This document shows positions 85-52,840 of a stretch of DNA of 52,840 nucleotides, piece by piece (position 1 is the stretch's first letter; each line of letters opens with the position of its first letter). The notes under the pieces are model-generated. The model ran no database searches. It had not been told where the DNA came from and saw nothing but the letters and a program-made list of their open reading frames with translations. The stretch is from a virus, in IMG/VR virus record IMGVR_UViG_3300000291_000011. One strand, given 5' to 3'. Made by a program: the position numbers and the translations under genes.

Positions 85-675
85 ATGAAGCCCGAAAACT
101 ACGCGAAGCTGTCCCCTGCCGCGAAAAAGCTGTACGACAACCCAAAATTTGAGTTTGAAATCCTCACCAGCGGCGAACATGCCGGAATGCTGCATGTGAT
201 AGGTGGGGTGAAATCCATGCCGCGCCCTAATGCTGCCGCCTTGCAGGAAATCAAGGCTATTCTGCTGGAGGAAAAGGCGGAGCGCGACGCGGAAGAAGCC
301 GCGAAGCGCGAAGAAGCCGCCCGAATCGGCAGAGAGCGCGAAGCGCGCCGCGCCGCCATCCCCGGCGTGAAGCTGATTGAAAAGGCGCGTGAAGAGTGGG
401 ACAAGTGGCACGATGACACAGTGCGCGCCATCGACAACGGCGACGGCATCCATCCCGCCGAACCGAAGGTGAACATCGAAGAGCTGAAACAGCAGTTTCC
501 GCAAGCCGCCGCCCTGCTCAAAGCGGAATCTTATAGCCGCTCGACTAATTATGCCAAGGCATCCGCCGGAAGCAAGGCGCGCGAACGAATCATCGACGGC
601 GAGGACTACACGCAGGTCATTGCCGACATGGAGCAGGAATGGACAGACTATTGCCATAAGCACATGTGGGACTAA
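85..675 (+). CDS. Hypothetical protein, first gene behind cassette A (central E/R/A-rich coiled-coil segment)
   Basis: 196-aa ORF, ATG 8 nt after the cassette RBS; no family recognised. Confidence 0.7.
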   Translation: MKPENYAKLSPAAKKLYDNPKFEFEILTSGEHAGMLHVIGGVKSMPRPNAAALQEIKAILLEEKAERDAEEAAKREEAARIGREREARRAAIPGVKLIEKAREEWDKWHDDTVRAIDNGDGIHPAEPKVNIEELKQQFPQAAALLKAESYSRSTNYAKASAGSKARERIIDGEDYTQVIADMEQEWTDYCHKHMWD

Positions 676-699: not shown

Positions 700-924
700 A
701 TGGCAATGCGGAAAGAGTACTACCAAGGCGAAGTGTCAGTCCGCGCAATGAAGAAGTATCGCGAGAAAGAAGGAATCAAAACGGTGCGCTTCGACGTTCG
801 CGCTGGGAGCAAAGAGGCGCTGGAAGAAGAAGCAAAGCGCCGTGGTCTTTCGGTGGCGCAGCTAATCGTTGATTCCGTAAACGCATACGTTGGACGTGTA
901 ATAATTTCCAACAGAAAACAATAA
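700..924 (+). CDS. Ribbon-helix-helix (CopG/Arc-like) DNA-binding protein, RHH-1
   Basis: 74-aa ORF; KTVRFDVRAGSKEALEEEAKRRGLSVAQLIVDSV fits a strand-helix-helix pattern; last gene before the terminator and cassette B. Confidence 0.55.
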   Translation: MAMRKEYYQGEVSVRAMKKYREKEGIKTVRFDVRAGSKEALEEEAKRRGLSVAQLIVDSVNAYVGRVIISNRKQ

Positions 925-930
925 TAGCAT

Positions 931-958
931 GGGCGCATCCGCTGGGGTGCGCCTTTTT
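931..958 (+). terminator. Rho-independent terminator
   Basis: GGCGCA..TGCGCC stem followed by TTTTT. Confidence 0.7.
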
Positions 959-965
959 CGTTGCG

Positions 966-1094
966 CAAAAAGTTTGCAAAAATCGCAAAAAAAATGTGAT
1001 TTACCCCTTGACATATACGGCGGTATATGCTATAATAATAGTGTCAGGAGGGCGGTACAAAAAATAAAGCCCCCGACAGAAAGAGGTAAGAATT
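966..1094 (+). promoter_or_regulatory. Promoter/operator/leader cassette copy B
   Basis: A-rich upstream tract; TTGACA 1008-1013, 17-nt spacer containing CATATAC-GGCG-GTATATG, TATAAT 1031-1036; hairpin 1042-1078; RBS AAAGAGG; ATG 1095. Near-identical to copy A over about 135 nt. Confidence 0.75.
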
Positions 1095-1304
1095 ATGAAG
1101 TTCGCGAGCATCAAGAAGGGCATCCGCATCACCGAGAAGATGGCGCAGAAGCTGGCTATCAACTGGTACTACGAAACGAAGAAATACTGCTACGAGTTGC
1201 AGTACGGGGAAGAAACGATGGATGGCGACTACGAGCGCAGCATCGTTCGCTGGAAGAAAGGCGAAGAGTACAAGCCTTCCGAAGTCGTTGCAACGCTGGC
1301 GTGA
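1095..1304 (+). CDS. Hypothetical protein, first gene behind cassette B
   Basis: 69-aa ORF at the cassette RBS; no family recognised. Confidence 0.6.
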   Translation: MKFASIKKGIRITEKMAQKLAINWYYETKKYCYELQYGEETMDGDYERSIVRWKKGEEYKPSEVVATLA

Positions 1305-1326
1305 ACAGGAAGGAGGAGCAAGTACC

Positions 1327-1635
1327 ATGTCAAACGAAGAAATTATCGTCAAGTCCGCCATCAGCGCGGGCATCTTCTCCGAAGAAGAAGCCGCCGCCTA
1401 CATCATGAACGGGTTGCGCCTCCCGATTCACACCTTCGCCGAGTGGAAAAACCACGGTTACATTGTCAAAAAGGGCGAACACGCCGCGCTGACCGTAAGC
1501 ATCTGGAAGCCCAAGACGCGCAAGAGGAAGAAGGACGAAAAGAACGTTGACGAAAAGGAAGAGAACAGCGGGTTCTTCCTGACGACCGCATACCTGTTCA
1601 CCAAGCAGCAGGTAGAAGCAATCAAGCCCGCCTAA
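1327..1635 (+). CDS. Small ArdC N-terminal-domain-like (ssDNA-binding / antirestriction-type) protein
   Basis: ATG 1327 after AGGAAGGAGGAG; HTFAEWKNHGYIVKKGEHAALTVSIWKP resembles the W-TF-QW..G..V-KGEK core of ArdC-N/DUF1738. Recalled motif, not searched. Confidence 0.4.
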   Translation: MSNEEIIVKSAISAGIFSEEEAAAYIMNGLRLPIHTFAEWKNHGYIVKKGEHAALTVSIWKPKTRKRKKDEKNVDEKEENSGFFLTTAYLFTKQQVEAIKPA

Positions 1636-1732
1636 TCGCAACAGAATGCCGCCTGTGAGCCGTTGGAGCAATCAGGCGACATGATTATGAGCAAAAACAA
1701 GCAAGACGTTAGAACGCGAGACAGGAGGCAAT

Positions 1733-2629
1733 ATGGGCATGTATTACGAAATCAACGAGGAAACCGCGAAGGCATCAAAGCTGATGATGTCACTTGACGA
1801 CTACGAAGAAAACAGCACGACGAACGAGTATCGCACAATGTGCGACAGGGCGCAGGAAATCGCAGAGGAGCAGAAGCAGAAGCACCCGGAATGCGCGGAG
1901 ACAATCGACATGATACTCAATCGATACTGCCGGAAGTTGGCGGAGTGGATAAACCGCGAGAACGCCATTGGTACGATGTGTCCTTCTGTCATGATTGCCG
2001 GTCCGGCTGGCATCAATCGAGCGAAGAAGGAAAAGCAGATTGCTGCATATAAAAGAAACGCGGAAAAGTACGAAGAAATCAGCGGATTGATTAGCCGCAT
2101 ACAGAGCGTCGGAACGGGCGGAATCAAGGCAGGAGACGCAAACGCGCTGGAAAAGCTCAAAAACAAACTGGAAAACATGGAGGAATGTTATCAGACGATG
2201 AAAAAGGCGAACGCCTACTACAAAAACAACGGAACGCTTGACGGGTTTTATCTCTTTGACGAGATAACAGAAGAAAAAATGCACGAATACAAACACAGCG
2301 GGCAACCGTTTAGTGCTTACACGCTGCAAAACTGTATCGCAGAGATACGGAGAATCAAGGCACGAATTGCAAGTATCACCACCGTGAAGGAGGAAGGGGG
2401 CGGCGAAAAGGTAATCAAGGGAATCCGCGTGGTGGAGGATACGGACGACATGCGCATTCGCCTGATTTTCCCGGATAAGCCCGACGAGGAGACGCGAAAC
2501 GCGCTAAAGGCAAACGGCTTTCGCTGGTCGCCGAAGAACAGCGCGTGGCAGCGGATGCTCAACGCAAATGGGCGCTGGGCGGCAAAGAACTTCCTTGCAA
2601 CGGTAAAAGATGAGAGCAATGAGAGCTAA
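1733..2629 (+). CDS. DUF3560-like protein
   Basis: 298-aa ORF with RBS AGGAGG; C-terminal RIRLIFPDKPDEETRNALKANGFRWSPKNSAWQR matches the G-F-RWSP..W-R end typical of DUF3560 proteins of conjugative elements and phages. Confidence 0.5.
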   Translation: MGMYYEINEETAKASKLMMSLDDYEENSTTNEYRTMCDRAQEIAEEQKQKHPECAETIDMILNRYCRKLAEWINRENAIGTMCPSVMIAGPAGINRAKKEKQIAAYKRNAEKYEEISGLISRIQSVGTGGIKAGDANALEKLKNKLENMEECYQTMKKANAYYKNNGTLDGFYLFDEITEEKMHEYKHSGQPFSAYTLQNCIAEIRRIKARIASITTVKEEGGGEKVIKGIRVVEDTDDMRIRLIFPDKPDEETRNALKANGFRWSPKNSAWQRMLNANGRWAAKNFLATVKDESNES

Positions 2630-2681
2630 AAGCGTGATATAATATAAAATGTAAAAAGCAGAAAGAGAGGCGCGAGCAGTA

Positions 2682-4148
2682 ATGCAAGCGTCTTTTTTGT
2701 TGGAAGAGGCGACTATGGAAGAGCTGCTCTTGCCTCTTCAGCGGCGGGATTTATGCGCGAGTGCGCTTTGTTGCGTTGGTGGGGACGCGACGGAAGAAGA
2801 GGAGGGAAAACCATTGCTTGACTGGAACGGCATCAAAATCGTCGAAACGGATTGTATGCTGCCGATTGACCGCGTGAAACCATACGCGAGAAACGCGAAG
2901 CGGCATCCGCAGGAGCAAATCGATGAAATCAAGGCAAGCATCAAGCGGTTCGGCATGGACGACCCCATCGGCATCTGGGGCAAGGAAAACCTGATTGTCG
3001 AGGGTCACGGGCGGCTGGAAGCGTGCAAGCAGCTCGGCATCCCGACAGTGCCGTGCATCAGGCTCGACCACCTTACGAAGGAAGAGCGCAAGGCGTACAC
3101 ACTGGCGCACAACAAAACCAACATGGACAGCGGCTGGGACTTTACGGCGCTTGACCAAGAGCTGGCGGAAATCGTTGATATTGACATGAGCGAGTTCGGT
3201 TTCGGAGTTCCCCTCTCAGAAGAAGAAGTCTGGAAAGAAAACGAAAACAGCATATCTCTTGCTGACAAATACACGGTTGCGCCATTTTCTGTCCTCGATG
3301 GCAGGAGTGACGAATGGCAAAAACGGAAAAAACAATGGCATTCCGTTATTGGCGATAGCAGGGAAGGGCGTGCAGAAGATTTAATCGGCGGGATTGCTGA
3401 TATTGCAAAAAGAAAGAATGCAAGGCTCTCCGGGACAAGTGAGTTTGACCCGGTTCTCTGCGAGGTGTTGATAAAATGGTTCTGCCCTCCCAATGGGAAA
3501 ATCGTTGACCCGTTCGCTGGCGGGAACGTTCGCGGCGTAATTTCCGCAATTCTTGGAAACGAATATCACGGAGTAGATATTCGAACAGAGCAGATTGCAG
3601 AAAATGAAGCGTCTTTACCCAAAATCCGTGAAGATTACGCACAAGCGCCGAAGTGGTATTGCGGCGACAGCGCGAATATTGACGTGATGCTATCAAAAGA
3701 AGCACCGTTTGATTTTTTTCTGATGTGTCCGCCGTATGGAGACTTGGAAAAGTACAGCGACGACCCGAAAGACCTATCAACGATGAAGTACGATGATTTT
3801 ATCGACACATACAGGCAAATAATTGCAAAGACAGTATCGCTTCTTTCGGAGAACGCATTTTGTGCCGTAGTCGTTTCCGACATTCGCGACAAAAAAGGGA
3901 TGTATCGTGGATTCACGTCTGACACGATTAAAGCGTTTACAGATTGCGGCGCGAAGTTGTATAACGATATGATAAAACTCGACCCAATAGGCACAGCCGC
4001 GGTTCGCGTCGAAAAACAATTCCGCGATATGCGCAAAGTCGTGCGCACCCACCAAAACGTTCTTGTTTTTGTCAAAGGAGACCAGCGCAAAATCAAAAAG
4101 GGAGAATACGAGTTTGATTTTGACGAAAGCGAAGCGGAGAATGCCTAA
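2682..4148 (+). CDS. ParB-like N-terminal domain fused to a DNA (N6-A/N4-C type) methyltransferase
   Basis: ParB-N segment (RNAKRHPQEQIDEIKASIKRFGMDDPIGIW..IVEGHGRLEA); SAM motif DPFAGG and catalytic-type CPPY motif. Start may instead be ATG 2715. Confidence 0.8.
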   Translation: MQASFLLEEATMEELLLPLQRRDLCASALCCVGGDATEEEEGKPLLDWNGIKIVETDCMLPIDRVKPYARNAKRHPQEQIDEIKASIKRFGMDDPIGIWGKENLIVEGHGRLEACKQLGIPTVPCIRLDHLTKEERKAYTLAHNKTNMDSGWDFTALDQELAEIVDIDMSEFGFGVPLSEEEVWKENENSISLADKYTVAPFSVLDGRSDEWQKRKKQWHSVIGDSREGRAEDLIGGIADIAKRKNARLSGTSEFDPVLCEVLIKWFCPPNGKIVDPFAGGNVRGVISAILGNEYHGVDIRTEQIAENEASLPKIREDYAQAPKWYCGDSANIDVMLSKEAPFDFFLMCPPYGDLEKYSDDPKDLSTMKYDDFIDTYRQIIAKTVSLLSENAFCAVVVSDIRDKKGMYRGFTSDTIKAFTDCGAKLYNDMIKLDPIGTAAVRVEKQFRDMRKVVRTHQNVLVFVKGDQRKIKKGEYEFDFDESEAENA

Positions 4149-5708: not shown

Positions 5709-6240
5709 GTTGCAAGCGTGGGGGGGGAGAGGCGGCAGCATTTCGGCGAAAAACACCTCTTCCACCTATGTTTCCGGCGGCAAAGTTGCAACCGTCGAAT
5801 ACTACAACCAAAATAGCGGCTCACGCGTCGAAAAAATCCGTACATTCGCCGACAATGACGGATTTGTAAAAGATTTGGAAGTGTTTGCTATGTCATATTT
5901 AGTCCCCAATAAGTATGACGTGGTTGTCCCACTGTATGTTGCGACCGCAAGAAGCGAAACCCCGTATCTTGGAAGCACCAAGGAAGCCGCTGCACTTGGA
6001 AAAAAAACAGGGAAAGTGGAAATGGCTCATATCGGCATCAATGTCAACACGCCGAAGGGTGTATCTGAAAAGCAAGAGGCATATGCCAAAAAGGTCGCAA
6101 CCCAAATGATTCGACGAAGCGCAGAGCATTTCGTCCAAGGCGTCGCACTTGGGCAAACGACGCTTGAAAATTTGGGAGAAGTGTTCAAGAAGCAGCCTGC
6201 ACTCTCTGCGAGACAGGTATTAGACGGGAAATTCAGGTAA
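5695..6240 (+). CDS. Hypothetical protein
   Basis: ATG 5695 after AGGAGGAG; 181 aa starting MFQFRLQAWGGRGGS; no family recognised. Confidence 0.65.
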   Translation: MFQFRLQAWGGRGGSISAKNTSSTYVSGGKVATVEYYNQNSGSRVEKIRTFADNDGFVKDLEVFAMSYLVPNKYDVVVPLYVATARSETPYLGSTKEAAALGKKTGKVEMAHIGINVNTPKGVSEKQEAYAKKVATQMIRRSAEHFVQGVALGQTTLENLGEVFKKQPALSARQVLDGKFR

Positions 6241-24990: not shown

Positions 24991-25242
24991 ATGAGCCGCG
25001 AAGTCGTATGGACAAAAGCGGTTGTAGATGCTTTTGTGGATGAAGCCTGTTTGTCCGATGAAGAGGAGCTGATTATCAGGTCGCGGGCGAAAGGCTGGAC
25101 ACGAACAAAGCAGTCGATACAGTACAACATGAGCATTCGCAAGATTGACTATATTATACACACGCTTAAAACCAAGTACGACGAAGCGCAGAAATACTCC
25201 GAGATTTTACCAAAGCGGAAAACAAAGAAAGCCGGGACGTAA
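24991..25242 (+). CDS. Small sigma-70 region-4-like HTH protein
   Basis: 83 aa; LSDEEELIIRSRAKGWTRTKQSIQYNMSIRKIDYII resembles region 4.2 / LuxR-type HTH. Confidence 0.5.
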   Translation: MSREVVWTKAVVDAFVDEACLSDEEELIIRSRAKGWTRTKQSIQYNMSIRKIDYIIHTLKTKYDEAQKYSEILPKRKTKKAGT

Positions 25243-25259
25243 TGTCCCGGTCTTTTTTT
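25231..25259 (+). terminator. Rho-independent terminator between convergent gene blocks
   Basis: CCGGGAC-gtaat-GTCCCGG followed by TCTTTTTTT; separates plus-strand lysis genes from the minus-strand operon. Confidence 0.8.
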
Positions 25260-25267
25260 GTTGTGCA

Positions 25268-25861
25268 CTATTCTTGCGCCTGACGCTTGCACTCAACGTC
25301 AAGTTCCGGATACACCCCCGCGATTTTCGCAAGGGTTTCAGTTTTTAGGCGATGGTACAACTCTTCCTTGCCGACAAGCCCGAACAGGTCAACTAATTTG
25401 TCATCATATTCGCAGAGGTTGTGGCGGATGAAATTAACCATCCAGCGTTCAAGCGTCTCGGTATTCGGGGACAATATATCCACATTGCCGTGTTCCAAAT
25501 ACCATTCTTGTTTTGCGTTCAGCGTCGCCTCTTCCAGGACGGGCATATCCCAGCGCGTAACGTGGATGGAAGCAATGAGGTCGTCGGCAATGGCTTCGGC
25601 GTTCTTGCGCTTCGTTTCGACGGCTTTTGCGGATGCCGCCTTCCGCGCGGCTGCTTTTGCCGCCATCGTCTGAAATTCCTGCGTCGCCATGACGGAACGC
25701 ACATCATCCTCGCGCCACAGCTTCATGGGCGCGGAGGACGCATAATGTGGATTCCGCTTAAGGATAGGCGGCGGCAGCAGCTTGTCTATCATGGACTTTG
25801 TGAAGCCCATAGACAATACGCCGCTTTGTGAAATGAGCTGTTCTTTTTGCTTTTCCGGCAT
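25268..25861 (-). CDS. Hypothetical protein (last gene of the cassette-C operon)
   Basis: 197-aa ORF; A/K-rich central linker; no family recognised with confidence. Confidence 0.7.
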   Translation of the reverse strand: MPEKQKEQLISQSGVLSMGFTKSMIDKLLPPPILKRNPHYASSAPMKLWREDDVRSVMATQEFQTMAAKAAARKAASAKAVETKRKNAEAIADDLIASIHVTRWDMPVLEEATLNAKQEWYLEHGNVDILSPNTETLERWMVNFIRHNLCEYDDKLVDLFGLVGKEELYHRLKTETLAKIAGVYPELDVECKRQAQE

Positions 25862-25877
25862 GGTGTCCTCTTTATAT

Positions 25878-26597
25878 CTACTTTGTAATATGTTCCTTTG
25901 ATTTGCGTTTCCTATAATTTTCTCTGGCTCTGCGATTTGCTTCTTCGCGTTGCTCCGCAGTCATCGCTTCATAGCGTGCTTTCTGTGCCGCACGTTTCTG
26001 TTCAGCACGCGACTTGTCATACTCTTTGAGATACTCCTTTTTAGCAGCAAGGCGGCATTCTTCTGAACAATATTCTCCATTTCCGATGGCAGAAAATGTC
26101 TTTTTGCAGTACTTGCAAATCTTCTCTTTTGGAACAACTCGTTTTCGCTCTCTAATAATATTCCCGGCGACCGCGTCATTGCGCTTTTCCGTCATTGCGG
26201 CACGTCGCTGTTCTCGGATTGCTTCTGCAGTAGCACTTTCCTTACATGCTGGGCAGTACTTCTGCTTCCCGCCAAAGACAATATAATCTTTCCCGCATCG
26301 CGCGCACTTATCCGTGCTTCCAAGCGGTCTTCTTGCGCCGCTTCGCCTGTAAATTGCGTTATGCAGCCGATTCGCTGCGTCCTGACATTCTTCACAGCGT
26401 GTGCACTTTGTCGGACGGGTCACAACTTTTCCGCAGTCCGGGCAAGCAAATGTATGCACCATTTCTGGATTCCCACTTTGAGCACCAGTCCCGACGCGCT
26501 GGCGACGTTTCTCGCTTATTTTGTAGCACCCTTCGCTGCAATAAATCCGCCGCCCGTCGGGAACGCGCCCACCACATATTGGGCAAGTCTTATCCAA
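25878..26597 (-). CDS. Multi-zinc-ribbon protein with basic R/K/E/Y-rich C-terminal helix
   Basis: 239 aa with at least five CxxC pairs (CPICG, CPDCG, CTRCEEC, CARCG..CPAC, CKYC..CSEEC); C-terminal KKEYLKEYDKSRAEQKRAAQKARYE.. Confidence 0.7.
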   Translation of the reverse strand: MDKTCPICGGRVPDGRRIYCSEGCYKISEKRRQRVGTGAQSGNPEMVHTFACPDCGKVVTRPTKCTRCEECQDAANRLHNAIYRRSGARRPLGSTDKCARCGKDYIVFGGKQKYCPACKESATAEAIREQRRAAMTEKRNDAVAGNIIRERKRVVPKEKICKYCKKTFSAIGNGEYCSEECRLAAKKEYLKEYDKSRAEQKRAAQKARYEAMTAEQREEANRRARENYRKRKSKEHITK

Positions 26598-26615
26598 CTC
26601 GACACCCCCTGCCGA

Positions 26616-27032
26616 TTATCTAATAACCGCAACGACCTCTGCATCGCACATGATAATCTCCTGCTCGTCCTCGCCAATATGGCTATTGTCTCCATCGCAG
26701 CGCATCAGGTACAGGTGCTCATTATAATACACCTTGTTAATGCGCAACGCCCGCGCGATATTCTTGAGCTGTTTTTCACGCGAATTTGCGATAACAATTT
26801 GCGTTGCACAGACGCCATCAAGTTCCTCATCGCTCATCTCTCCGTCGTACCAATTGTACGAGTTGGGGATGCTATCTCCAACACAGAACTCCCGGTCATC
26901 GTTGCGAAGACCCCAGTCGTAAAAATTCAAGCATTCATCTTCCTTTGCCTTTTCCATCTCCGCAAGAATTTTTTCCGCCGTAGCTTCGACGTCCATGTTA
27001 TCTGCAATCTCCATGATTTCCTTGCAATCCAT
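26616..27032 (-). CDS. Strongly acidic hypothetical protein, first gene behind cassette C
   Basis: 138 aa, many D/E residues; ATG at the cassette RBS. Confidence 0.7.
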   Translation of the reverse strand: MDCKEIMEIADNMDVEATAEKILAEMEKAKEDECLNFYDWGLRNDDREFCVGDSIPNSYNWYDGEMSDEELDGVCATQIVIANSREKQLKNIARALRINKVYYNEHLYLMRCDGDNSHIGEDEQEIIMCDAEVVAVIR

Positions 27033-27150
27033 ACGTTACCTCTTTCCGTCCGGGGCTCTGTTTTGTACCGCCCCTTGACATAATTTATTATAGCACAAGT
27101 TGTGTAACTTGTCAATAGTTTTTTAAGATTTTTCGCAAGTTTTTTGCGTT
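27033..27150 (-). promoter_or_regulatory. Promoter/operator/leader cassette copy C
   Basis: Minus strand: TTGACA (27115-27110), 17-nt spacer with ACAAGTT-ACAC-AACTTGT, TATAAT (27092-27087), hairpin 27080-27047, RBS GAAAGAGG, ATG 27032. Confidence 0.75.
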
Positions 27151-27296
27151 CTTTCCGCAAGCCACTGCGATAGGGCAAGGCGGACAACCGCCGAATCACT
27201 TAGCCCAATTCGCTGCCCAATCGCCTTAATTTGCTCATTCTGCTCGTGCGTCACAATGACGTTCTTAACAATCCGATTTCCATCTTTTTTCAGCAT
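27123..27296 (-). CDS. Ribbon-helix-helix DNA-binding protein, RHH-2
   Basis: ATG 27296 after AGGAGGAC; KNVIVTHEQNEQIKAIGQRIGLSDSAVVRLALSQWL fits strand-helix-helix; last gene before cassette C. Confidence 0.55.
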   Translation of the reverse strand: MLKKDGNRIVKNVIVTHEQNEQIKAIGQRIGLSDSAVVRLALSQWLAERTQKTCEKS

Positions 27297-27310: not shown

Positions 27311-28624
27311 TCATTTAAGCAGATTATCAATTGCTGTTGTCGTCCCCGTCCCGCTGAAATAATGGACGGAAATGCCGCAACCGCGCGCAACGTCGATGAC
27401 GGCGTAAAACTCGGTATGCGACATATACGCCGCCTGAATCCATAATTCCGACGCGCTGCGGATGACGCTTTCCGGGCAGGTCGTGCCGTGCGGATAGGCG
27501 CGGATGGAAGGGAAACGCTCGGTCAGGCGGCGCGCCCATACAGGATGCCCGCCGACGATGACAACACCGTCAGGAATGATTCTGGGGCGTTGCGTGTCGC
27601 CGGGGGCTTCCTGCGTGTCTTCCTGTGCGCTGCGCCAGAGCGCGTCGCGAAGGGCGGTCAGCTCCTGCGCATCCGCTTCATGTGTTTGGAGGGCGGCGAA
27701 TGATTTCTGCGCGTCTTTCTCCTGCTGACGGATGGCAGCTTCCAGCTCGGCAATGCGCTTTTCTGCGGCGGCGGCGCGCTGCTCGGCTTTTTCCTGCGCG
27801 ATTCGCGCTGCTTCCAAGGCGGCAGCGTCGCCGCGAAGGATTTTGTTGATGCAAAATGCCTTGTCCTTTTGGATTGCACGGGCAACCATCAGCGACGCGG
27901 CATTGAGCGCCGTTTTTTCGGGTGTGTCGGAAAGAATGATAGCGGCATCGTCCGCATTGATGCGGATGTCCGCGGTGTAATCCGAGACATCAATGCCAGC
28001 GCCATCGTACATGAGCGCGAACTCGTCAATCGCTTCCACGGCAAAACGGTCGTACAGGTCGCCGAAGCCAGCGACAGGCAGCTTTCCCAAATGTTTTTGC
28101 AGGACTTTTTTATCGTCCGAGGTCGTCTGCTCTTTTCGGATGCTTTTGATGTTAGACTGCAACAAAAGCCAGTCCGAGAGGTCGGCGAAGCTGTCATTGC
28201 TGGCGACTTTTCTTCCGGAAACAAGAATCTGGAAGAATGCAAGCATCGTGCGATAAAGCGCAGTATCGAGATTTTTGTCGAAAATCAGGCAGGAATCAAG
28301 CGAAATTTCCGCGCCCTGCGGGGATGACTTAATGGCATCATGCGTTTTATCGTATGTTTTGCGGTCAACCGCGCGGAGAAGTCCGCGAATGGTGGCTTCT
28401 TCTGCGGCGCGGAGAATGCCCAGCGCGTGAGCGGAAACAATCTGCTGTTCCGCGCGTCCGGCAGTAATTGCGACAGACGACTTGCCAGCGCCGCGCATGG
28501 TGTCCGCATAGTATTTCGCTGGTGACAGCGCATAAAACCGCTCCACCGCGTCGGGGTTGAGGAATGCCATTGCGCGCGCTACGATTGGCGCAAGGTCAAC
28601 GCTGACGCGCCCTGCGTTCTTCAT
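27311..28624 (-). CDS. Large hypothetical protein: unknown N-domain, coiled coil, DUF2325-like C-terminal domain
   Basis: 437 aa; RBS AAAGGAG; coiled coil AAALEAARIAQEKAEQRAAAAEKRIAELEAAIRQQEKD; C-terminal VVIVGGHP..ASELWIQAAYMSHTEFYAVIDVARGCGISVHYFSGTG resembles DUF2325. Confidence 0.7.
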   Translation of the reverse strand: MKNAGRVSVDLAPIVARAMAFLNPDAVERFYALSPAKYYADTMRGAGKSSVAITAGRAEQQIVSAHALGILRAAEEATIRGLLRAVDRKTYDKTHDAIKSSPQGAEISLDSCLIFDKNLDTALYRTMLAFFQILVSGRKVASNDSFADLSDWLLLQSNIKSIRKEQTTSDDKKVLQKHLGKLPVAGFGDLYDRFAVEAIDEFALMYDGAGIDVSDYTADIRINADDAAIILSDTPEKTALNAASLMVARAIQKDKAFCINKILRGDAAALEAARIAQEKAEQRAAAAEKRIAELEAAIRQQEKDAQKSFAALQTHEADAQELTALRDALWRSAQEDTQEAPGDTQRPRIIPDGVVIVGGHPVWARRLTERFPSIRAYPHGTTCPESVIRSASELWIQAAYMSHTEFYAVIDVARGCGISVHYFSGTGTTTAIDNLLK

Positions 28625-28720
28625 TGTGCTGCTCCTTTCATCGCCTAAAATGATTTCGACGCGTTGCGGTTGCTTCCGCGTCCTCCAATCGCGCTTTGCA
28701 GACCATGCGTCGAACTCGTC

Positions 28721-29197
28721 TTAGCGGGCTGTAAGCGTATCGATGATGTCCCTCGCCTCGGTGGCGGTTGAGACGACATAGGCAGCATATAGCCACTTGT
28801 ACGGAAACTTGTCAAGGTTTTGGCGAATAAATTTCTCTATGGTCACACCTGCTTTTTCCGCCGCCGCCGCAATCGCGGCTTGCTTGTCGGGGTCGTCGCG
28901 GGTAGCGATAGCATCCGCGACTGTCTTTTCGTGCGACGCAACAAATTTCGCACGCAGGTCTGTGGCGTACTCGACTTGCTTGTCGCTCACGCCGTGAATT
29001 GTCGGAAGGCTCAATGCCGCCGCCGCTTCGCGCTGCTGCTTGCGCTGCTGCTTGCGGTAGCAGTCGGCGCAAAGAAGGGGATGAGCTTCCGCCCATTCCT
29101 TTTTGCTGTCCGCGTCCCGGCGATTGAAGCCGTCAATGCGGCGTTCAACGGTAGCGCCGCAATCAGGGCATTTGTAGGTGGCAATTGCTTTTGCCAT
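28721..29197 (-). CDS. Zinc-ribbon protein, first gene behind cassette D
   Basis: 158 aa from ATG 29197; YKCPDCG..LLCADCY; then a helical domain (GVSDKQVEYATDLRAKF..). Confidence 0.7.
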   Translation of the reverse strand: MAKAIATYKCPDCGATVERRIDGFNRRDADSKKEWAEAHPLLCADCYRKQQRKQQREAAAALSLPTIHGVSDKQVEYATDLRAKFVASHEKTVADAIATRDDPDKQAAIAAAAEKAGVTIEKFIRQNLDKFPYKWLYAAYVVSTATEARDIIDTLTAR

Positions 29198-29335
29198 GGT
29201 CATTACCTCTTTCCGTCCGGGGCTCTGTTTTGTACCGCCCCTTGACACTATGTATTATAGCACGAGTTGTGCAACTTGTCAACACTTTTTCAAGATTTTT
29301 CGCAAGTTTTTTTGCAACTTTCTCGCGTTTTGTTT
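29198..29335 (-). promoter_or_regulatory. Promoter/operator/leader cassette copy D
   Basis: Minus strand: TTGACA (29282-29277), 17-nt spacer with ACAAGTT-GCAC-AACTCGT, TATAAT (29259-29254), hairpin 29247-29214, RBS GAAAGAGG; AAGTTGCA boxes at 29277-29270 and 29320-29312. Confidence 0.75.
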
Positions 29336-32558: not shown

Positions 32559-32798
32559 ACCCCCGTTTTGACTACTTTGCACGACGGAAAGAGGGTCAAA
32601 ATTGCGAATCTGGGGATTGCAAAAACCATGTGCGATAACAGCAGATTGAGCAATTACAAGGCATACGCAAGCGCAGAGTAGCGAAGAGAAAACCGCTTTC
32701 GCTTTCTTCCATGGAAAGCAAACAAAATCCGTAAAACTGTTGGATTCTCTATGGTTCTCAGACCATTGCAACGCTGCTGACTACCATTTTGACTACTT
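32559..32798. other. Candidate attP region
   Basis: Non-coding stretch immediately downstream of int; exact 12-bp direct repeat TTTTGACTACTT at 32566-32577 and 32787-32798, extra TGACTAC at 32778; palindrome TTCCATGGAA at 32707-32716. Confidence 0.35.
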
Positions 32799-33842
32799 GG
32801 ACGTAGAAGTCAACATACTTTCGACCCTTCGGATGGCGTTTTCTTCCTTTTTTTTCGTGAGATGTGCATATATCCGCATTATCATCGTCTCATCCTCATG
32901 CCCCATCCAGCGCGCGGCAGTTTTAATGTCAACATCCGCATCATAGAGCATCGTCGCAAAAGTATGTCTGCAATCGTGCTGCCTGATTGCCACAGTTCTC
33001 CCCGCAATTTTTGTTAGATGATTTTGGTAACGCTTCCACGCATCGGTCACAGCGCTGAAAGAAATAATTTTGTTATCTTTCGATATTATCACGCTTCCGT
33101 GTCGCCCTCGCAAGACACCCCGTAACGGCGGAAACAGCGGCACGTCACGAATACCAGCTTTGGTCTTTGGTGCAGTGACAATATAGTCGGAACGTTCGCG
33201 TCGAATCGCCTTTCGGACGTGAATCACACCTTTTTCAAAATCAACGTCATCATCAATATCGAGCGCAAGCGCTTCTCCACGCCTAAGCCCTGCATACACC
33301 ATCACCATCGCGTAAATTCCCATCCTTTCGCTGTCACAAGTATCTCTGATTAGTTTTATTTCCCAATCATCAAGATTACGGTGCGTCCCTACTGCCCCTT
33401 TCTTCCGCCTAACGTTCTCGCAGGGAGAAATTGCAACTATTCCATCATTTTTTGCAGCGCGAAAAACCGCTCTTGTTGATTCGGCTATCTTCCTTAGCGT
33501 CCCTTCTCCGCGGTCGGAAAAAGCGTTATAAAGTCGCTGTATATCCGACGGCGTAATTAGCCTCATCTCCGTCTTTGGCAGGATTGAGGCTATCTGGTTA
33601 AGGCGTGAGACATATGCATCATATACATTTATGGTCACCTCGCTCTTGTACGTCGGCAGCCACTCCGCCGCGTACTCCGCGAACGTATACTTTTCCCGTG
33701 GTTTCCTGCCGTATTTTTCCTGCTTTTTGTACTCTTCACGGGCTGCAAGGGCTTCTGACTGCGTTCGCCCGTAGAACGAGAATCCCTTATATTTACAAAC
33801 ATAACGCCCGTCGGGGCGCTTTTTTAGTGTCTGGCGTGGCAA
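32793..33842 (-). CDS. int: Tyrosine recombinase / phage integrase
   Basis: TTG 33842 eight nt after AAGGAG; ..GLRRGEALAL.. (Arg), HDCRHTFAT (HxxR), RIYAHL (Tyr). Confidence 0.9.
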   Translation of the reverse strand: MPRQTLKKRPDGRYVCKYKGFSFYGRTQSEALAAREEYKKQEKYGRKPREKYTFAEYAAEWLPTYKSEVTINVYDAYVSRLNQIASILPKTEMRLITPSDIQRLYNAFSDRGEGTLRKIAESTRAVFRAAKNDGIVAISPCENVRRKKGAVGTHRNLDDWEIKLIRDTCDSERMGIYAMVMVYAGLRRGEALALDIDDDVDFEKGVIHVRKAIRRERSDYIVTAPKTKAGIRDVPLFPPLRGVLRGRHGSVIISKDNKIISFSAVTDAWKRYQNHLTKIAGRTVAIRQHDCRHTFATMLYDADVDIKTAARWMGHEDETMIMRIYAHLTKKKEENAIRRVESMLTSTSK

Positions 33843-35121: not shown

Positions 35122-35150
35122 TTGACAAGCGGGGCAATCTGGCATATAAT
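35122..35150 (+). promoter_or_regulatory. Consensus sigma-70/A promoter pointing into the 3' end of the repressor gene (antisense)
   Basis: TTGACA 35122-35127, 17-nt spacer, TATAAT 35145-35150; bracketed by the 9-bp inverted repeat AATCAGCAG (35107) / CTGCTGATT (35181). No credible ORF downstream. Confidence 0.6.
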
Positions 35151-35285
35151 CATGGCATCTTGCTTCTCCGCTCTGCTCCTCTGCTGATTCTCCTGATTGT
35201 CCTCACGCGCTTGCCGCTCTCAGGCGTTCGGGGACGCGCGGTTCTTCTTGCTGGTTTCATGTTCCCGACATTCGCGCCGTGGGCA

Positions 35286-35699
35286 TCACGGTTCTCCCTT
35301 TTCAGCATCCCCCTTGTCCGCCATGCGCTTTAAGCTATCACGTTCCTTGCGCTCCTGCCGCATCCGACGTTCCGCCCTCGCGGTGAGGTACTCAACGTAG
35401 TCCATCGCCTCGCGCACAACGTCATCCGGCGCACCCATCAGCTTGGCGATAATCGCCTCGCAGGTTGCGTCGAGGATAGGGCGGTCAGACGTTCCATGCG
35501 GGTTGTCGGACAGTCCGCAAAGGTAGTCGGTGGTCACGCCGAGCGCTTCGGCGAACTTCACGACGCTGGTAATCTCCGGCGTGATGGTTCCACGCTCATA
35601 GCAAGAATACGTCGCTTGCGACACTCCAACGATGCTTGCCATTTCGGCTTGCGTCTTTTTTTTTGCCTTTCTCGCTTCCTTGAGCCTATCTCCAAGCAT
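35286..35699 (-). CDS. CI-like repressor (XRE-family HTH, no S24 peptidase domain)
   Basis: 137 aa; LKEARKAKKKTQAEMASIVGVSQATYSCYERG; divergent from a cro-like gene. Confidence 0.75.
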   Translation of the reverse strand: MLGDRLKEARKAKKKTQAEMASIVGVSQATYSCYERGTITPEITSVVKFAEALGVTTDYLCGLSDNPHGTSDRPILDATCEAIIAKLMGAPDDVVREAMDYVEYLTARAERRMRQERKERDSLKRMADKGDAEKGEP

Positions 35700-35731: not shown

Positions 35732-35760
35732 TTGACATATATAATCGAGTGTGCTATTAT
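35732..35760 (+). promoter_or_regulatory. Promoter for the cro-like gene (switch 1)
   Basis: TTGACA 35732-35737, 17 nt, TATTAT 35755-35760. Confidence 0.6.
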
Positions 35761-35796
35761 TAGCATTGATAATAAGCACTGATTGGAGGGATGCGG

Positions 35797-35997
35797 ATGC
35801 AGAACCGCGTGCGTGAGTTCCGCGCAAAGAAGGGCTTTACGCAGATGCAGCTTGCGTGCGAAATCGGATGTGAGCAGGGGCTTGTGTCTCTGTATGAGAG
35901 GGGTGTAAATACCCCGTCACTGCATAACGCTCTTCGCCTTGCCCGTGCGCTTGGCACGACGGTCGAAGCCCTTTTCGGGGGTGAGGTCGATGGCTGA
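35797..35997 (+). CDS. Cro-like XRE-family HTH protein
   Basis: 66 aa; REFRAKKGFTQMQLACEIGCEQGLVSLYERG. Confidence 0.75.
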   Translation: MQNRVREFRAKKGFTQMQLACEIGCEQGLVSLYERGVNTPSLHNALRLARALGTTVEALFGGEVDG

Positions 35998-36735: not shown

Positions 36736-36764
36736 TTGACGTGAAGAATAATTCGTGCTATAAT
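36736..36764 (+). promoter_or_regulatory. Promoter (switch 2, rightward)
   Basis: TTGACG 36736-36741, 17 nt, TATAAT 36759-36764. Confidence 0.6.
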
Positions 36765-36797
36765 GAGCATGAAGAATACTTCACGGAAGGAGTGGAG

Positions 36798-36989
36798 ATG
36801 CAGAATGTTCAGCTTGTCAATGCGCGGAAAGCCTCGAATATGACGCAAGTCGAGGTTGCAAGCCGCTGCGGGGTTACAGTCCGCGCATATCAGCACTACG
36901 AAGCAGGACAGCAAACCCCCAGCGTTACGACAGCGATTCGCATTGCCGACGCGCTGGGGGTGGAAGATGTCAGGGCGCTATTTGGATAG
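36798..36989 (+). CDS. XRE-family HTH protein (switch 2, rightward)
   Basis: ATG 36798 after GGAAGGAGTGGAG; ARKASNMTQVEVASRCGVTVRAYQHYEAG. Confidence 0.7.
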   Translation: MQNVQLVNARKASNMTQVEVASRCGVTVRAYQHYEAGQQTPSVTTAIRIADALGVEDVRALFG

Positions 36990-39278: not shown

Positions 39279-39307
39279 TTGACATCAACGCAAAGTTGAT
39301 GTATAAT
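39279..39307 (+). promoter_or_regulatory. Promoter with in-spacer palindrome (switch 3, rightward)
   Basis: TTGACA 39279-39284, 17-nt spacer containing CATCAAC-GCAAA-GTTGATG, TATAAT 39302-39307; an extra GTTGATG half-site lies downstream. Confidence 0.65.
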
Positions 39308-39360
39308 GTAAACAAGCAAGCGGAAAACACTTGCCGAGAGTTGATGAGAAGGGAGTAACA

Positions 39361-39552
39361 ATGAGAGCCGCATTAAAGCGGGTCAGAGCCTTGCAAGGCT
39401 GGTCGCAAACCGATGTTGCAAAGCAACTCGGAATCACGGTACAGGCTTACAGCCTAATCGAGACTGGGAAGCGTGACCCGTCCTATCCTGTGTTGGTAGC
39501 GCTGGAGGACGTATTTCACACTTCCCATCGAGTACTACTGAGAGAGGAGTGA
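39361..39552 (+). CDS. Cro-like XRE-family HTH protein (switch 3)
   Basis: 63 aa; RALQGWSQTDVAKQLGITVQAYSLIETG. Confidence 0.7.
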   Translation: MRAALKRVRALQGWSQTDVAKQLGITVQAYSLIETGKRDPSYPVLVALEDVFHTSHRVLLREE

Positions 39553-41699: not shown

Positions 41700-41808
41700 A
41701 AAAAGCGCCCGTGCCGCGGGTACAAAGCGCGAACACGAGCAGACAGAAAGGGTAATGTGGCGGTTAAGCCACTATCATTCTAACACAAAAACGAAAGGAA
41801 GTCAAGAT

Positions 41809-42324
41809 ATGGAGCAGTTTATTAACGAAATCGAGGAGAACGAGCAGGAAGAACGCGCGGGGTTTGTTATCGACAACGACCAGAAGGCGGACTGGGCGGT
41901 TCGCCGCATCGCAGAGCTGGAAGCCGACACGCAGAAATGGAAGGACTACTACAAGGCACAGAGTGAGCGCGTGGCGCAGTCCAATCAGCAGAGCATTGAC
42001 TACTTCACCGCCCTGCTGGAACGCTACTTCGACAGTGTGCCGCACAAGGCGACGAAGACCAGCGAGAAGTACAAGCTGCCGAGCGGCGTTCTGGTTCGCA
42101 AGGCGCAAGCGCCGGAGTACGAGCGCGACGATGCGCAAATTATCGCGTGGTGTGCCGAGAATGCGCCGTCCTGCGTGGAGAACGTGCCGAAGCTGAAATG
42201 GACGGCGCTGAAAGGGTTGTTTGTAGAAAACAACGGACAGGCGATTGACGAAATTACGGGCGAAGTCGTACCCGGTATCAAAATTATCCCGCGCGACCCG
42301 GTTTTCGCTGTGCAAAAGGGGTGA
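41809..42324 (+). CDS. Gam-like / Gp157-like host-nuclease-inhibitor-type protein
   Basis: 171 aa; IDNDQKADWAVRRIAELEADTQKWKDYYKAQ pattern; located upstream of ERF. Confidence 0.5.
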   Translation: MEQFINEIEENEQEERAGFVIDNDQKADWAVRRIAELEADTQKWKDYYKAQSERVAQSNQQSIDYFTALLERYFDSVPHKATKTSEKYKLPSGVLVRKAQAPEYERDDAQIIAWCAENAPSCVENVPKLKWTALKGLFVENNGQAIDEITGEVVPGIKIIPRDPVFAVQKG

Positions 42325-46306: not shown

Positions 46307-47068
46307 ATGGAGCTTGAGTATGTGCCTGTGCAGGTAGCCATGCGCCGGGAAATCGCGAGACTTTCCGACGAAGAAGCCGGACGTGCGCTTAAAGCCATTC
46401 TTGATTATGTGGCGACGGGTGAGGATGTCGAGCCGGAAGGAAACGCGGCGTTTTTGTACCTTGCGCTGTTGCGAGAATGCGATAAAATCTGCAAGATTCA
46501 CGAGGTGCGTTCCGCAGGTGGCAAGGCTGGCGGACGTGGTCGCCCGAAGAAAACAAAGTCAGAAGAAATCCAGCAGTCCGAATCGGAACAGGCGCAGCTC
46601 AACCCCGAACCAGAGCAGAAGCCCGAAGTGCGCGCTCCTGCATCCTTCATTAGCGACGAAGAAGCAGCAGAAATCCAGCAAGGCACAAACGAGGTGCTAA
46701 ACGAAGCGAAACGGCAGGGATTCCCCGACACAACGGCGACGATGGACAATATCAACCAGCTTGTGGCGGACAACGGCACGGAAGAAGTGCTGGAATGCGT
46801 GAAAATCGCCGGAGAATCTGGGAAGCCTAACATTCGATACCTCAAAGGCGTAATCAACGGACGCGCGAAAGAAAAACAAACGGAAGCGCAACGAGAGCAA
46901 GCGCGGATTGAGGCGGAAAAGCATCCGATAAGGTTTATCAATAGCACAGATGAAATCGAAGTGCGCGAACCGCCGAAAATCAAACAAAGAGATGTATTTA
47001 TAAACAGCGTGGGGTATCCAGAGGTACGGACGAAGTTGGAAGAAATAGCAAAAAAATGGAGTAGTTAA
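46307..47068 (+). CDS. Replisome organiser / DnaD-domain protein
   Basis: 253 aa upstream of dnaB; C-terminal VLECVKIAGESGKPNIRYLKGVINGRAKE is DnaB_2/DnaD-like. Confidence 0.6.
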   Translation: MELEYVPVQVAMRREIARLSDEEAGRALKAILDYVATGEDVEPEGNAAFLYLALLRECDKICKIHEVRSAGGKAGGRGRPKKTKSEEIQQSESEQAQLNPEPEQKPEVRAPASFISDEEAAEIQQGTNEVLNEAKRQGFPDTTATMDNINQLVADNGTEEVLECVKIAGESGKPNIRYLKGVINGRAKEKQTEAQREQARIEAEKHPIRFINSTDEIEVREPPKIKQRDVFINSVGYPEVRTKLEEIAKKWSS

Positions 47069-52268: not shown

Positions 52269-52718
52269 ATGGTTGACTTAAAGCGGATGCGGTATCTCAT
52301 CAGGCGGTATCCTATGGCTTGCTTGCGAGCAGAACAGGCGCGAATCCGGGCGCAGAAGCTGACGCGGACAATCAGTGATGCGCCGCGCGGGGGCGGGAGT
52401 ATGAACAGCACGGAGGAAGGGCTGCTGTATCGCATCGAGGCGCTGGAACGCAAGAAAGCAATCTGGGACGAGTTGTGCAAGATGCGCGAAGAGCTTTCAC
52501 CGATAATCGACGCGCTGGAAGTTCAGGCTAAGAAGCGTTTTGCGGAAACGGATGACGAAAAAAGAGCGCGAAGAGATATGCTGGAAGTGCAGTGCATGAG
52601 GATGCGGTATCTGGAGGGACGGAGCGCCCGGGAAATCAGCTACAATCTGGCGTATTCCGAGCAGCACGTCTTCCGCGTGATTGGTAACGCGGAGCGTAAA
52701 ATCCAGAGCGCGGAATAA
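52269..52718 (+). CDS. ArpU/RinA-type or sigma-region-4-like late transcriptional regulator
   Basis: ATG 52269 after GGGAGGGGAAA; C-terminal RMRYLEGRSAREISYNLAYSEQHVFRVIGNAERKI is a region-4-like HTH. Position is the last gene before the packaging side of the genome. Confidence 0.55.
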   Translation: MVDLKRMRYLIRRYPMACLRAEQARIRAQKLTRTISDAPRGGGSMNSTEEGLLYRIEALERKKAIWDELCKMREELSPIIDALEVQAKKRFAETDDEKRARRDMLEVQCMRMRYLEGRSAREISYNLAYSEQHVFRVIGNAERKIQSAE

Positions 52719-52723
52719 GGCGG

Positions 52724-52753
52724 TCGCGCATCGAAAGGTGCGCGATTTTCTTT
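52724..52753 (+). terminator. Rho-independent terminator
   Basis: TCGCGCA-tcgaaagg-TGCGCGA followed by TTTTCTTT. Confidence 0.65.
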
Positions 52754-52840
52754 GCAAAAAATCCGAAAAAAATGTGATTTGCCTCTTGACATATACGGCG
52801 GTATATGCTATAATAATAGTGTCAGGAGGGCGGTACAAAA
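52754..52840 (+). promoter_or_regulatory. Promoter/operator/leader cassette copy A, 5' part
   Basis: A-rich upstream tract; TTGACA 52786-52791, 17-nt spacer with CATATAC-GGCG-GTATATG, TATAAT 52809-52814. It continues at nt 1 if the genome is circular. Confidence 0.7.

Follow-up and report, generated by a model that had tools for sequence, protein, structure and literature searches.

A repeated promoter-hairpin cassette with swappable putative operators for ribbon-helix-helix proteins in a phage of probable Clostridia hosts

What would lead a phage to carry the same composite control element, with its spacer and stem sequences exchanged, four times in one genome in front of different operons? 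We addressed this question in the IMG/VR record IMGVR_UViG_3300000291_000011, a viral stretch of 52,840 nt (hereafter the window), which holds two copies of the element on the plus strand (A and B) and two on the minus strand (C and D). An original prediction, made from the letters of the window, had described this cassette as a modular expression device, in which an operator-swappable strong promoter is joined to a 5' stabiliser or regulator-binding hairpin. All four copies lie where they had been placed, and our analysis partly supports the interpretation, which was largely right in spirit. The best explanation overall, to which we give a probability of roughly 60%, is a strong promoter repressed by a small ribbon-helix-helix (RHH) protein, followed by a stabilising hairpin leader and an extended Shine-Dalgarno sequence.

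The cassettes are about 130 bp long, and every one of them contains phased A-tracts, a TTGACA-17-TGnTATAAT promoter, a palindrome within the promoter spacer, a hairpin and the ribosome site GAAAGAGGTAA. The last 54 nt of the window are identical to its first 54 nt (52787-52840 and 1-54), an exact terminal overlap from which it follows that the assembly is a circular genome of 52,786 bp and that copy A is a single copy spanning the junction. Its first part (52754-52840, plus strand) comprises the A-tract/UP region (52754-52785), the -35 (52786-52791), the putative operator CATATACGGCGGTATATG (52790-52807) and the -10 (52809-52814), and its second part (1-84) comprises the putative operator again (4-21), the -10 (23-28), the hairpin UGUC...GACA (34-69) and the extended Shine-Dalgarno GAAAGAGGTAA (70-80), with the ATG at 85. 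In copy B (966-1094, plus strand), the A-tracts (966-1007) are followed by the -35 (1008-1013), the putative operator (1012-1029), the -10 (1031-1036), the hairpin (1042-1078), the Shine-Dalgarno (1079-1089) and the ATG at 1095. The two minus-strand copies read downward through the same parts: copy C (27033-27150) with A-tracts at 27150-27116, -35 at 27115-27110, a perfect 7-4-7 palindrome at 27112-27095, -10 at 27092-27087, hairpin at 27080-27047, Shine-Dalgarno at 27046-27036 and ATG at 27032; and copy D (29198-29335) with A-tracts at 29335-29283, -35 at 29282-29277, a palindrome one mismatch from a perfect 7-4-7 at 29279-29262, -10 at 29259-29254, hairpin at 29247-29214, Shine-Dalgarno at 29213-29203 and ATG at 29197.

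As originally described, a perfect TTGACA-17-TATAAT promoter is present in all four copies, and all four additionally carry the TG of an extended -10. Promoters resembling the consensus (at most 2 mismatches) number 14 in the window against 2.3 expected, and GAAAGAGGTAA occurs 4 times against 0.6 expected, confined to the four cassettes and always 4-8 nt from the start codon. The 7-4-7 palindromes, each 18 bp long, beginning within the final bases of the -35 and ending at the TG of the extended -10, were also confirmed: across the whole window, both of their sequences occur solely in the four cassette promoters. A covariance model of the leader scored the four copies at 63-83 bits, with the next match at 13.5 bits.

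The spacer palindromes divide the four copies into two pairs, with one palindrome shared by A and B and the other by D and C, and each pair contains a gene for a small candidate RHH protein. The last gene of operon A (700-924, plus strand) encodes RHH1, a protein of 74 amino acids (aa) with the predicted strand VRFDVRA, which we propose binds the CATATAC-N4-GTATATG palindromes of A and B. Operon D likewise ends in a gene (27123-27296, minus strand) for RHH2, a 57-aa CopG-like protein with the strand VIVTHEQ, which we propose binds the ACAAGTT-N4-AACTTGT palindromes of D and C. The AlphaFold2 (AF2) model of RHH2, with a predicted local distance difference test (pLDDT) score of 85.8, has a beta-alpha-alpha topology (strand 8-15, helices 17-30 and 34-56), and the fold modelled is that of the RHH (CopG/Arc/MetJ) proteins: Foldseek ranked CopG (1ea4/1b01/2cpg) best, then PutA, NikA, AmrZ, Arc and RHH antitoxins, at probabilities of at most 0.87, a target TM of 0.76 and E-values near 1. 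RHH1 matched the PHROG 'transcriptional regulator' (E=2.4e-4) and gave weak RHH signals (Pfam RHH_1, E=0.0076, below the cutoff; VapB26, E=0.6), and its expected strand is unstructured in a low-confidence AF2 model (pLDDT 57.5). A sequence search of both proteins against the PDB returned nothing significant. We also observed that the 3' end of the RHH2 gene overlaps the A-tract/UP region of copy C (27123-27150, minus strand), such that the last codons (…ERTQKTCEKS) are encoded there, and that operon D has no terminator ahead of copy C.

Relatives of the phage provide the evidence that ties these proteins to the palindromes. Exact-pattern scans of IMG/VR recovered the leader in about 100 stretches, mostly 30-55-kb contigs from one large dataset, and all related IMG/VR loci that we fetched contain 201 cassettes in total, of which 152 are unique. 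These cassettes exhibit four palindrome flavours (I to IV) on one scaffold, each with its own RHH variant, as expected of the operator-swappable strong promoter originally proposed: the strand VRFDVRA goes with CATATAC-N4-GTATATG, ITIEVQA with CATATT-GCCGGG-AATATG, VIVTHEQ with CAAGTTG-N3-CAACTTG, and IIVTREQ or IILTKEQ with CAAGGTATATACCTTG. Across de-duplicated related loci, the beta-strand motif predicts the flavour of the repressor's own promoter in 57 of 58 cases and that of the next promoter downstream in 69 of 71. Since the repressor gene lies 0.7-2 kb from its own promoter, across cargo that differs between phages, adjacency alone is not the whole explanation for this association. The protein variants differ mostly in the N-terminal, DNA-reading strand and little in the helices, and a natural chimera with the VRFDVRA strand on the helices of another variant was found in a flavour-I operon. 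Taken from these sequence comparisons, it is very likely that the spacer palindromes serve as operators through which the operon-encoded RHH proteins would repress.

Downstream of the promoter, the second constant part of the cassette is its leader. The hairpin starts 5 nt after the -10 in 107 cassettes and 6 nt after it in the other 94, accounting for 201 of 201 copies. Computed folding gave the structures that had been described, at -9.6 kcal/mol for the A/B hairpins and -14 to -16 kcal/mol for the C/D hairpins, and the outer stem is closed in the minimum-energy fold of 76 of 79 unique hairpins (mean free energy -10.9 kcal/mol, mean z -3.2 vs. shuffles). When flavours I and II are compared, identity reaches 81% in the leader and 92% in the ribosome site, as against 53% in the A-tract region, 44% in the spacer and 51% in the DNA past the start codon, a contrast indicating that the leader is held constant amid changing surroundings. 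The loop GGUACAAA is common to all operator flavours but is not invariant, as GGUGCAAAA, GGUACGAAA and GGCACAAAA also occur. The extended Shine-Dalgarno reads AGAAAGAGGU, which nearly complements the 3' end of Bacillota 16S rRNA (CCUCCUUUCU), and this complementarity would explain the conservation of its AGAAAG. Rfam gave no gathering-score match in the window, and a scan of copy B by E-value gave matches at chance level.

The count of four holds for the promoter-linked copies, beyond which the window contains a fifth, promoter-less leader at 41710-41754 (plus strand). The covariance model's next match after the four copies, at 41701-41755, is weak alone (E = 0.2). The leader follows the stop codon of the preceding gene and abuts the ATG of a Mu Gam-like gene (41755-42324), with the hairpin CGUGCCGCG[GGUACAAAG]CGCGAACACG at 41710-41737 (the match reads CGUGCCGCG[GGUACAAAG]CGCGAACACGAGCAGACAGAAAGGGUAAUG) and then GACAGAAAGGGUAA at 41742-41754. 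By our own arithmetic, GGTACAAA followed by GACAGAAAG within 30 nt is expected about 2e-4 times per window-sized sequence. The gam leader is conserved in 52 viral contigs, and its 27 variants include C-G, U-A and A-U at one stem position, along with mismatched forms; in some variants the stem is extended to about 16 bp. The gam copy thereby retains both the GGUACAAA loop and the GACAGAAAGGG site despite a different stem, and of all our observations it is the best evidence that the hairpin, and specifically its loop, matters. The presence of the same loop on a different stem and without a promoter is also evidence for a leader that acts at the RNA level, independently of the promoter. Gene callers on related contigs start gam 18 codons past the ATG that follows this ribosome site.

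Together, we propose that each cassette would be a self-contained expression unit for swappable cargo operons. The UP-like A-tract and the consensus -35/17/TGn/-10 would give maximal initiation by the main sigma factor of the host (sigma-A), and the palindrome would be bound by the RHH repressor encoded as the last gene of the operon transcribed from that promoter. Because the dyad begins at the end of the -35 and stretches as far as the TG of the extended -10, the bound repressor would exclude RNA polymerase. RHH1 would accordingly shut off promoters A and B, and RHH2 promoters D and C, producing a burst of expression and then negative feedback in two circuits that would run without cross-talk in this phage, with four such circuits in the family. 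The transcript would start at the base of the GC-rich hairpin or 1-2 nt from it; the hairpin would guard the 5' end against 5'-dependent decay and leave the ribosome site unpaired with whatever gene has recombined behind it, and the extended Shine-Dalgarno would load ribosomes whichever gene follows. For the leader, this combination of a 5' stabiliser with a strong extended Shine-Dalgarno is a tentative best guess, which we hold at somewhat less than even odds.

Several observations pull against this proposal. The A/B hairpins are only marginally more stable than dinucleotide shuffles (z = -1.3), and an analysis of 72 unique leaders by RNAalifold and pair counting found covariation to be absent in the main family, with a score equal to that of shuffles. 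In these leaders 88.7% of cells pair, there is one double change, and pair-breaking single changes (about 20) exceed wobble-preserving ones (about 10). A purely structural stabiliser does not account for how strongly the loop is conserved, and the gam copy, being internal, cannot be a primary 5' end. On the protein side, RHH1 is weakly recognised as an RHH protein, given its below-cutoff Pfam match and poor AF2 model; one locus combines a flavour-IV promoter with an operon encoding a flavour-I-type repressor; and the association between protein and operator could derive partly from physical linkage and shared descent, given that about 100 bp separate each repressor gene from the promoter that follows. 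Among the cargo, matches to validated anti-defence families are limited to an ArdC-N-like domain and a methyltransferase.

These results also redefine what can be said of the leader. The stem had been read as preserved by compensatory changes between A/B and C/D, of which one U-A to U-G change stands and the rest amounts to a register shift of the G-run against the C-run; with no covariation among the 72 unique leaders, the claim of compensation could not be upheld. A weak hint comes from the GGAGGGC 5' arm, which needs six C's opposite and is nearly never combined with a shorter 3' arm (21 vs. 1). For the suggested 5' stabiliser or regulator-binding hairpin, this leaves the fixed position, 5-6 nt from the -10, and the constrained sequence as support, without the compensatory-change argument. 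We considered and rejected a number of further roles. Neither dyad fits a terminator or attenuator, as there is no sense-strand U-tract and neither was called a terminator on its own strand; an RNase III site was set aside given a stem of about 10 bp with bulges, as was a CsrA-type site given that the GGA differs between A/B and C/D; and a CI operator within the leader was rejected because the dyads of the cI-cro region look different.

The conservation of the loop raises a different reading of the leader, namely that the hairpin is a recognition site whose GGUACAAA loop is read by a trans-acting phage or host protein or by a small RNA. Such a factor would control translation or decay of all five leaders together, across the repressor circuits. 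The 5' half of the loop is conserved as much as the stem or more, the same loop occurs in all operator flavours, and the promoter-less gam copy retains it on a different stem. Precedent exists in Aca1 and Aca2, which bind hairpins in the 5' untranslated region (UTR), with such motifs also found between genes, although for the RHH family no covarying RNA motif was found (PMC13551039). No candidate binder emerged from our analysis, however, and RHH1 and RHH2 differ from one another whereas the loop stays the same; many copies tolerate point changes in it, distant cassettes carry A-rich loops of other sequence, and a search of the phage for complementary sites gave one 10-nt match at 46452, within chance. 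We therefore regard a recognition site as unlikely, if well above negligible. As the hairpin is common to all flavours, it is in particular unlikely to be the RNA site of the repressors. A bolder version, in which the loop is the address of an RNA-binding regulator that ties five early or anti-defence units into one post-transcriptional regulon above the orthogonal RHH/operator pairs, strikes us as doubtful. The pairs themselves may diversify because the repressor of a resident prophage could silence the anti-defence operons of an incoming relative.

A second reading takes the cassette chiefly as a recombination linker, comparable to the PeSL elements of T4-type phages, with its uniformity maintained by gene conversion and by homologous exchange that shuffles cargo; the G-run/C-run stem-loop would then be incidental or act at the DNA level, which is compatible with a regulatory role. 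The first genes behind the cassette belong to at least 14 unrelated families across relatives, and the same gene is found with different flavours, which also bears out the modular part of the expression device originally proposed. Relatives carry two or three tandem units at the A/B position; leader variants are unlinked to flavour, such that identity within a flavour equals identity between flavours; and recombination occurs within PeSLs, which are built of the same parts, GGGG...CCCC stems among them (PMC2839356). Three tandem units, of flavour IV, then I, then I, occur in the related loci L228 (616-2900), L154 (4775-7050) and L005 (minus strand). In L228 two repressor genes are identical chimeras, leaving the flavour-IV promoter without a cognate repressor; the second copy of the chimera, identical to the first, lies in the adjacent operon of flavour IV, and this single discordant case has the appearance of gene conversion between units.

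The cassettes of three related loci, with the spacers TATACGTCAGTATATGC and TATACGGCAGTATATGT, break off within the hairpin and do so in two sequence variants; there the promoter and GTGTCAGGAGGGC are joined to unrelated sequence (ATGAGCCAACCGACAAGG...), which points to recombination junctions within the leader. A linker, however, would explain neither the fixed 5-6 nt spacing to the -10, nor the divergence of A-tract and spacer beside a constant leader, nor the gam copy, which has no promoter, another stem and the same loop; and it does not exclude regulation. As the chief role of the cassette we consider it improbable.

Two remaining readings fare worse. The hairpin might be a cis-acting antitermination or pause signal of the put, nut or boxB type, carrying transcription of A through 931-954 or of B into the late genes. 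Put and nut sites lie just downstream of promoters, as this hairpin does, and there is a terminator between operons A and B, with a long B operon beyond it; but copy B has its own promoter, making read-through from A unneeded, there is neither a boxA-like partner motif nor an Rfam match, and the element stands directly before the ribosome site in every copy including gam, pointing to translation or stability, all of which makes antitermination very improbable. That the spacer palindromes are stem-loops attenuating upstream read-through, and not operators, is scarcely credible: T4-type PeSL stems do most often lie between the promoter boxes or overlap them, and they terminate transcription (PMC2839356), but the palindromes here form AT-rich 7-bp stems with 4-nt loops and no U-tract, separate GC-rich terminators already stand upstream of A and B, and a terminator role would not predict four flavours that co-vary with the DNA-reading strand of a repressor.

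We additionally searched for the cassette beyond its close relatives. Repressor proteins of this kind are present in many ENA, Logan and JGI assemblies, and a scan of GTDB genomes with the leader pattern gave 27 matches, all of them chance and none with promoter or hairpin context. Patterns aimed at divergent cassettes found a handful (L136, L164, L224, L226 and L227). Of these, L136, L224, L226 and L164 keep the consensus promoter, the 5-nt gap, a hairpin and GAAAGAG, but their stems are different, their loops A-rich and their spacers free of a palindrome; the stem is GGGGA/UCCCC in L136 and AU-rich in L164, and U-A to U-G exchanges occur among L136, L224 and L226. The absence of the palindrome from these distant cassettes indicates that the core of promoter, hairpin and ribosome site is older than the operators.

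Several known systems resemble the cassette in part. One of them is Aca14, an RHH protein that acts on an inverted repeat in the promoter to repress both its own anti-defence operon and an adjacent one (Feussner et al., NAR 2026, PMC13551039). Both systems have a strong early promoter with an inverted repeat and a small regulator encoded in the operon, in both the repeat recurs in the promoter of the neighbouring downstream operon, and in both the cargo is made up of small genes whose function is unknown or anti-defence; some Aca families also share hairpins, which lie in the 5' UTR and intergenically. In contrast to Aca14, whose repeat overlaps the -10, the cassette repeat fills the spacer between -35 and -10, there would be two RHH/operator pairs in this phage without cross-reaction and four in the family, the probable hosts are Clostridia and not Proteobacteria, and no validated anti-CRISPR was recognised in the operons with Pfam, PHROGs or PADLOC; unlike in the Aca systems, the leader hairpin is common to all flavours.

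On the Bacillus conjugative plasmid p576, four repeated strong sigma-A promoter sequences head ardC and other establishment operons under the control of the RHH protein Reg (Val-Calvo et al. 2021, PMC8708921). This EGeRS2/Reg arrangement shares with ours several conserved copies of a strong promoter heading variable operons, an RHH repressor gene in one of them and a design that would give transient expression on entry. It differs in that the operators of Reg, direct dual heptamers (TTATCCCnnTTATCCC), flank the promoter, whereas the cassette has 7-4-7 palindromes in the spacer, in that no shared 5' hairpin leader is described for p576, and in that our element belongs to a phage. As its operator geometry differs from theirs, we do not class the cassette with Aca14 or Reg.

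The PeSLs of T4-type phages are likewise composites of about 100 bp, with an AT-rich tract, a sigma70-type promoter, a G-run/C-run stem-loop and a Shine-Dalgarno (PMC2839356, PMC4122927), repeated before unannotated genes in plastic regions and tied to modular shuffling (Arbiol et al. 2010; Comeau et al. 2014). PeSL stems, however, are terminators or attenuators with no cognate repressor known, whereas the cassette has two separate dyads, a putative operator and a leader hairpin without a U-tract, and its phage is temperate, siphovirus-like and apparently of Clostridia. For the leader, the aprE transcript offers a parallel in its stabilisation by a stem-loop at the 5' end together with the binding of ribosomes (Hambraeus 2002, cited as reference 109 in PMC3997798), and the same source cites two other Bacillota 5' stabilisers, STAB-SD of cryIIIA and the SP82 polypurine stabiliser (references 106 and 179). 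As in aprE-type leaders, a predicted hairpin at the extreme 5' end is followed by a very strong extended Shine-Dalgarno, with a proposed block to 5'-dependent decay; unlike in those leaders, the loop is conserved beyond structural need and one copy is internal to an operon.

In P22 Pant/Arc and pMV158 CopG, a small operon-encoded RHH repressor binds a short symmetric operator in the core promoter. Those systems have a single promoter and a single specificity, whereas here one scaffold has been multiplied and, as we read it, re-keyed to four specificities with swappable cargo. What is new here is that one scaffold bears four repressor-strand/operator pairs, along with the host group and the shared hairpin leader with a conserved loop that is also found inside an operon.

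Most genes behind the four cassettes are unannotated. Operon A begins with a 196-aa protein of no known family (85-675, plus strand). The cargo of operon B (1095-4148, plus strand) comprises a 69-aa protein, an ArdC-N-like protein (1327-1635; Pfam 26.9 bits vs. a cutoff of 22.6), a member of a PHROG 'primase' family (1733-2629) and a protein joining ParB_N to an N6/N4 DNA methyltransferase (2682-4148), the methyltransferase being an orphan with no restriction partner. The cargo of operon D (27311-29197, minus strand) is two proteins of no known family, one Cys-rich and 158 aa long (28721-29197) and one of 437 aa (27311-28624), and operon C (25268-27032, minus strand) encodes an acidic 138-aa protein with an isoelectric point (pI) of 4.25, a 239-aa Zn-ribbon/HNH-like protein and a 197-aa protein before ending at a bidirectional terminator (25231-25251). 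Pfam and PHROGs gave no match for ten further cargo families from relatives, and PADLOC, run on all cargo, matched the methyltransferase alone and no known defence system. Several cargo proteins across relatives have pI values of 4.0-4.3, and low pI is also seen in DNA-mimic anti-restriction proteins and in many anti-CRISPRs. Considering the ArdC-N domain, the orphan methylase, Gam and the acidic unannotated proteins, we infer that the cargo probably consists of anti-defence genes.

The gene content of the operons departs from the original prediction on one point, that the cassette heads every accessory operon and none of the structural, replication or lysis genes. The operon of copy B encodes the PHROG 'primase' family protein, and no plus-strand intrinsic terminator was found between its promoter and position 6000, near the packaging genes; the fifth leader stands before the Mu Gam-like gene; and other strong promoters, without this leader, precede XRE-family regulator genes, with another at 35122.

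One of these, at 39279-39360 (plus strand), is another perfect TTGACA-17-TATAAT promoter, with a 7-5-7 palindrome in its spacer (CATCAAC-GCAAA-GTTGATG) and a third GTTGATG half-site about 35 nt downstream, just ahead of a 63-aa XRE-family gene (39361-39552). It resembles the cassettes in its operator-in-spacer design, but with a helix-turn-helix regulator and no hairpin leader, and it is kept in relatives. The perfect consensus promoter at 35122-35300 (plus strand) has no obvious gene; its predicted transcript is pyrimidine-rich and antisense to the 3' end of the CI-like gene (35286-35699, minus strand), its promoter and transcript start are conserved in relatives, and the lysis-lysogeny switch may have in it an antisense RNA. 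At 36736-36800 and 35732-35800 (both plus strand), small XRE genes are preceded by near-consensus promoters whose leaders are short; the one at 36736 carries GTGAAGAATA once in the spacer and again past the -10, a possible direct-repeat operator.

Turning to the phage as a whole, its gene content is that of a temperate, siphovirus-like phage. Annotated features include a tyrosine integrase (32793-33842), the CI-like XRE repressor (35286-35699, minus strand), the Mu Gam-like protein, ERF recombination, the large terminase, an NlpC/P60-SH3 endolysin and several small XRE genes with strong promoters of their own. Copies A and B sit between the packaging genes and a sigma70-region-4-like gene (52269-52718, plus strand; Pfam Sigma70_r4 match below threshold), with an intrinsic-terminator-like hairpin and T-run, read from the sequence, between that gene and copy A (52724-52749, plus strand) and an intrinsic terminator between operon A and copy B (931-954, plus strand). 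Copies D and C lie on the opposite strand between the lysis genes and the integrase end, the usual site of prophage accessory genes. Megablast of both halves of the window against GenBank phages returned no match, and no tRNA genes were found in the window. An identical integrase occurs on a 203-kb scaffold where it adjoins bacterial genes, including one for an Lgt protein whose best named relatives are found in metagenome-assembled genomes of Clostridia and Eubacteriales (about 42% identity), and this bacterial flank points to uncultured gut-type Clostridia as hosts. The TRTGnTATAAT promoter form, which is typical of Bacillota, fits such a host.

Collectively, these findings extend those on Aca14 and Reg576 to phages of Bacillota and add a shared leader. 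The cassette provides a compact, searchable flag for the early or accessory operons of widespread temperate phages of uncultured Clostridia, hosts for whose phages almost nothing is known of anti-defence genes, and the roughly 15 unannotated cargo families behind it, many of them small and very acidic, are candidates for anti-restriction and anti-CRISPR screens. The four strand/operator pairs form a natural series for how RHH proteins change DNA specificity, and could also serve as orthogonal switches in Gram-positive synthetic biology.

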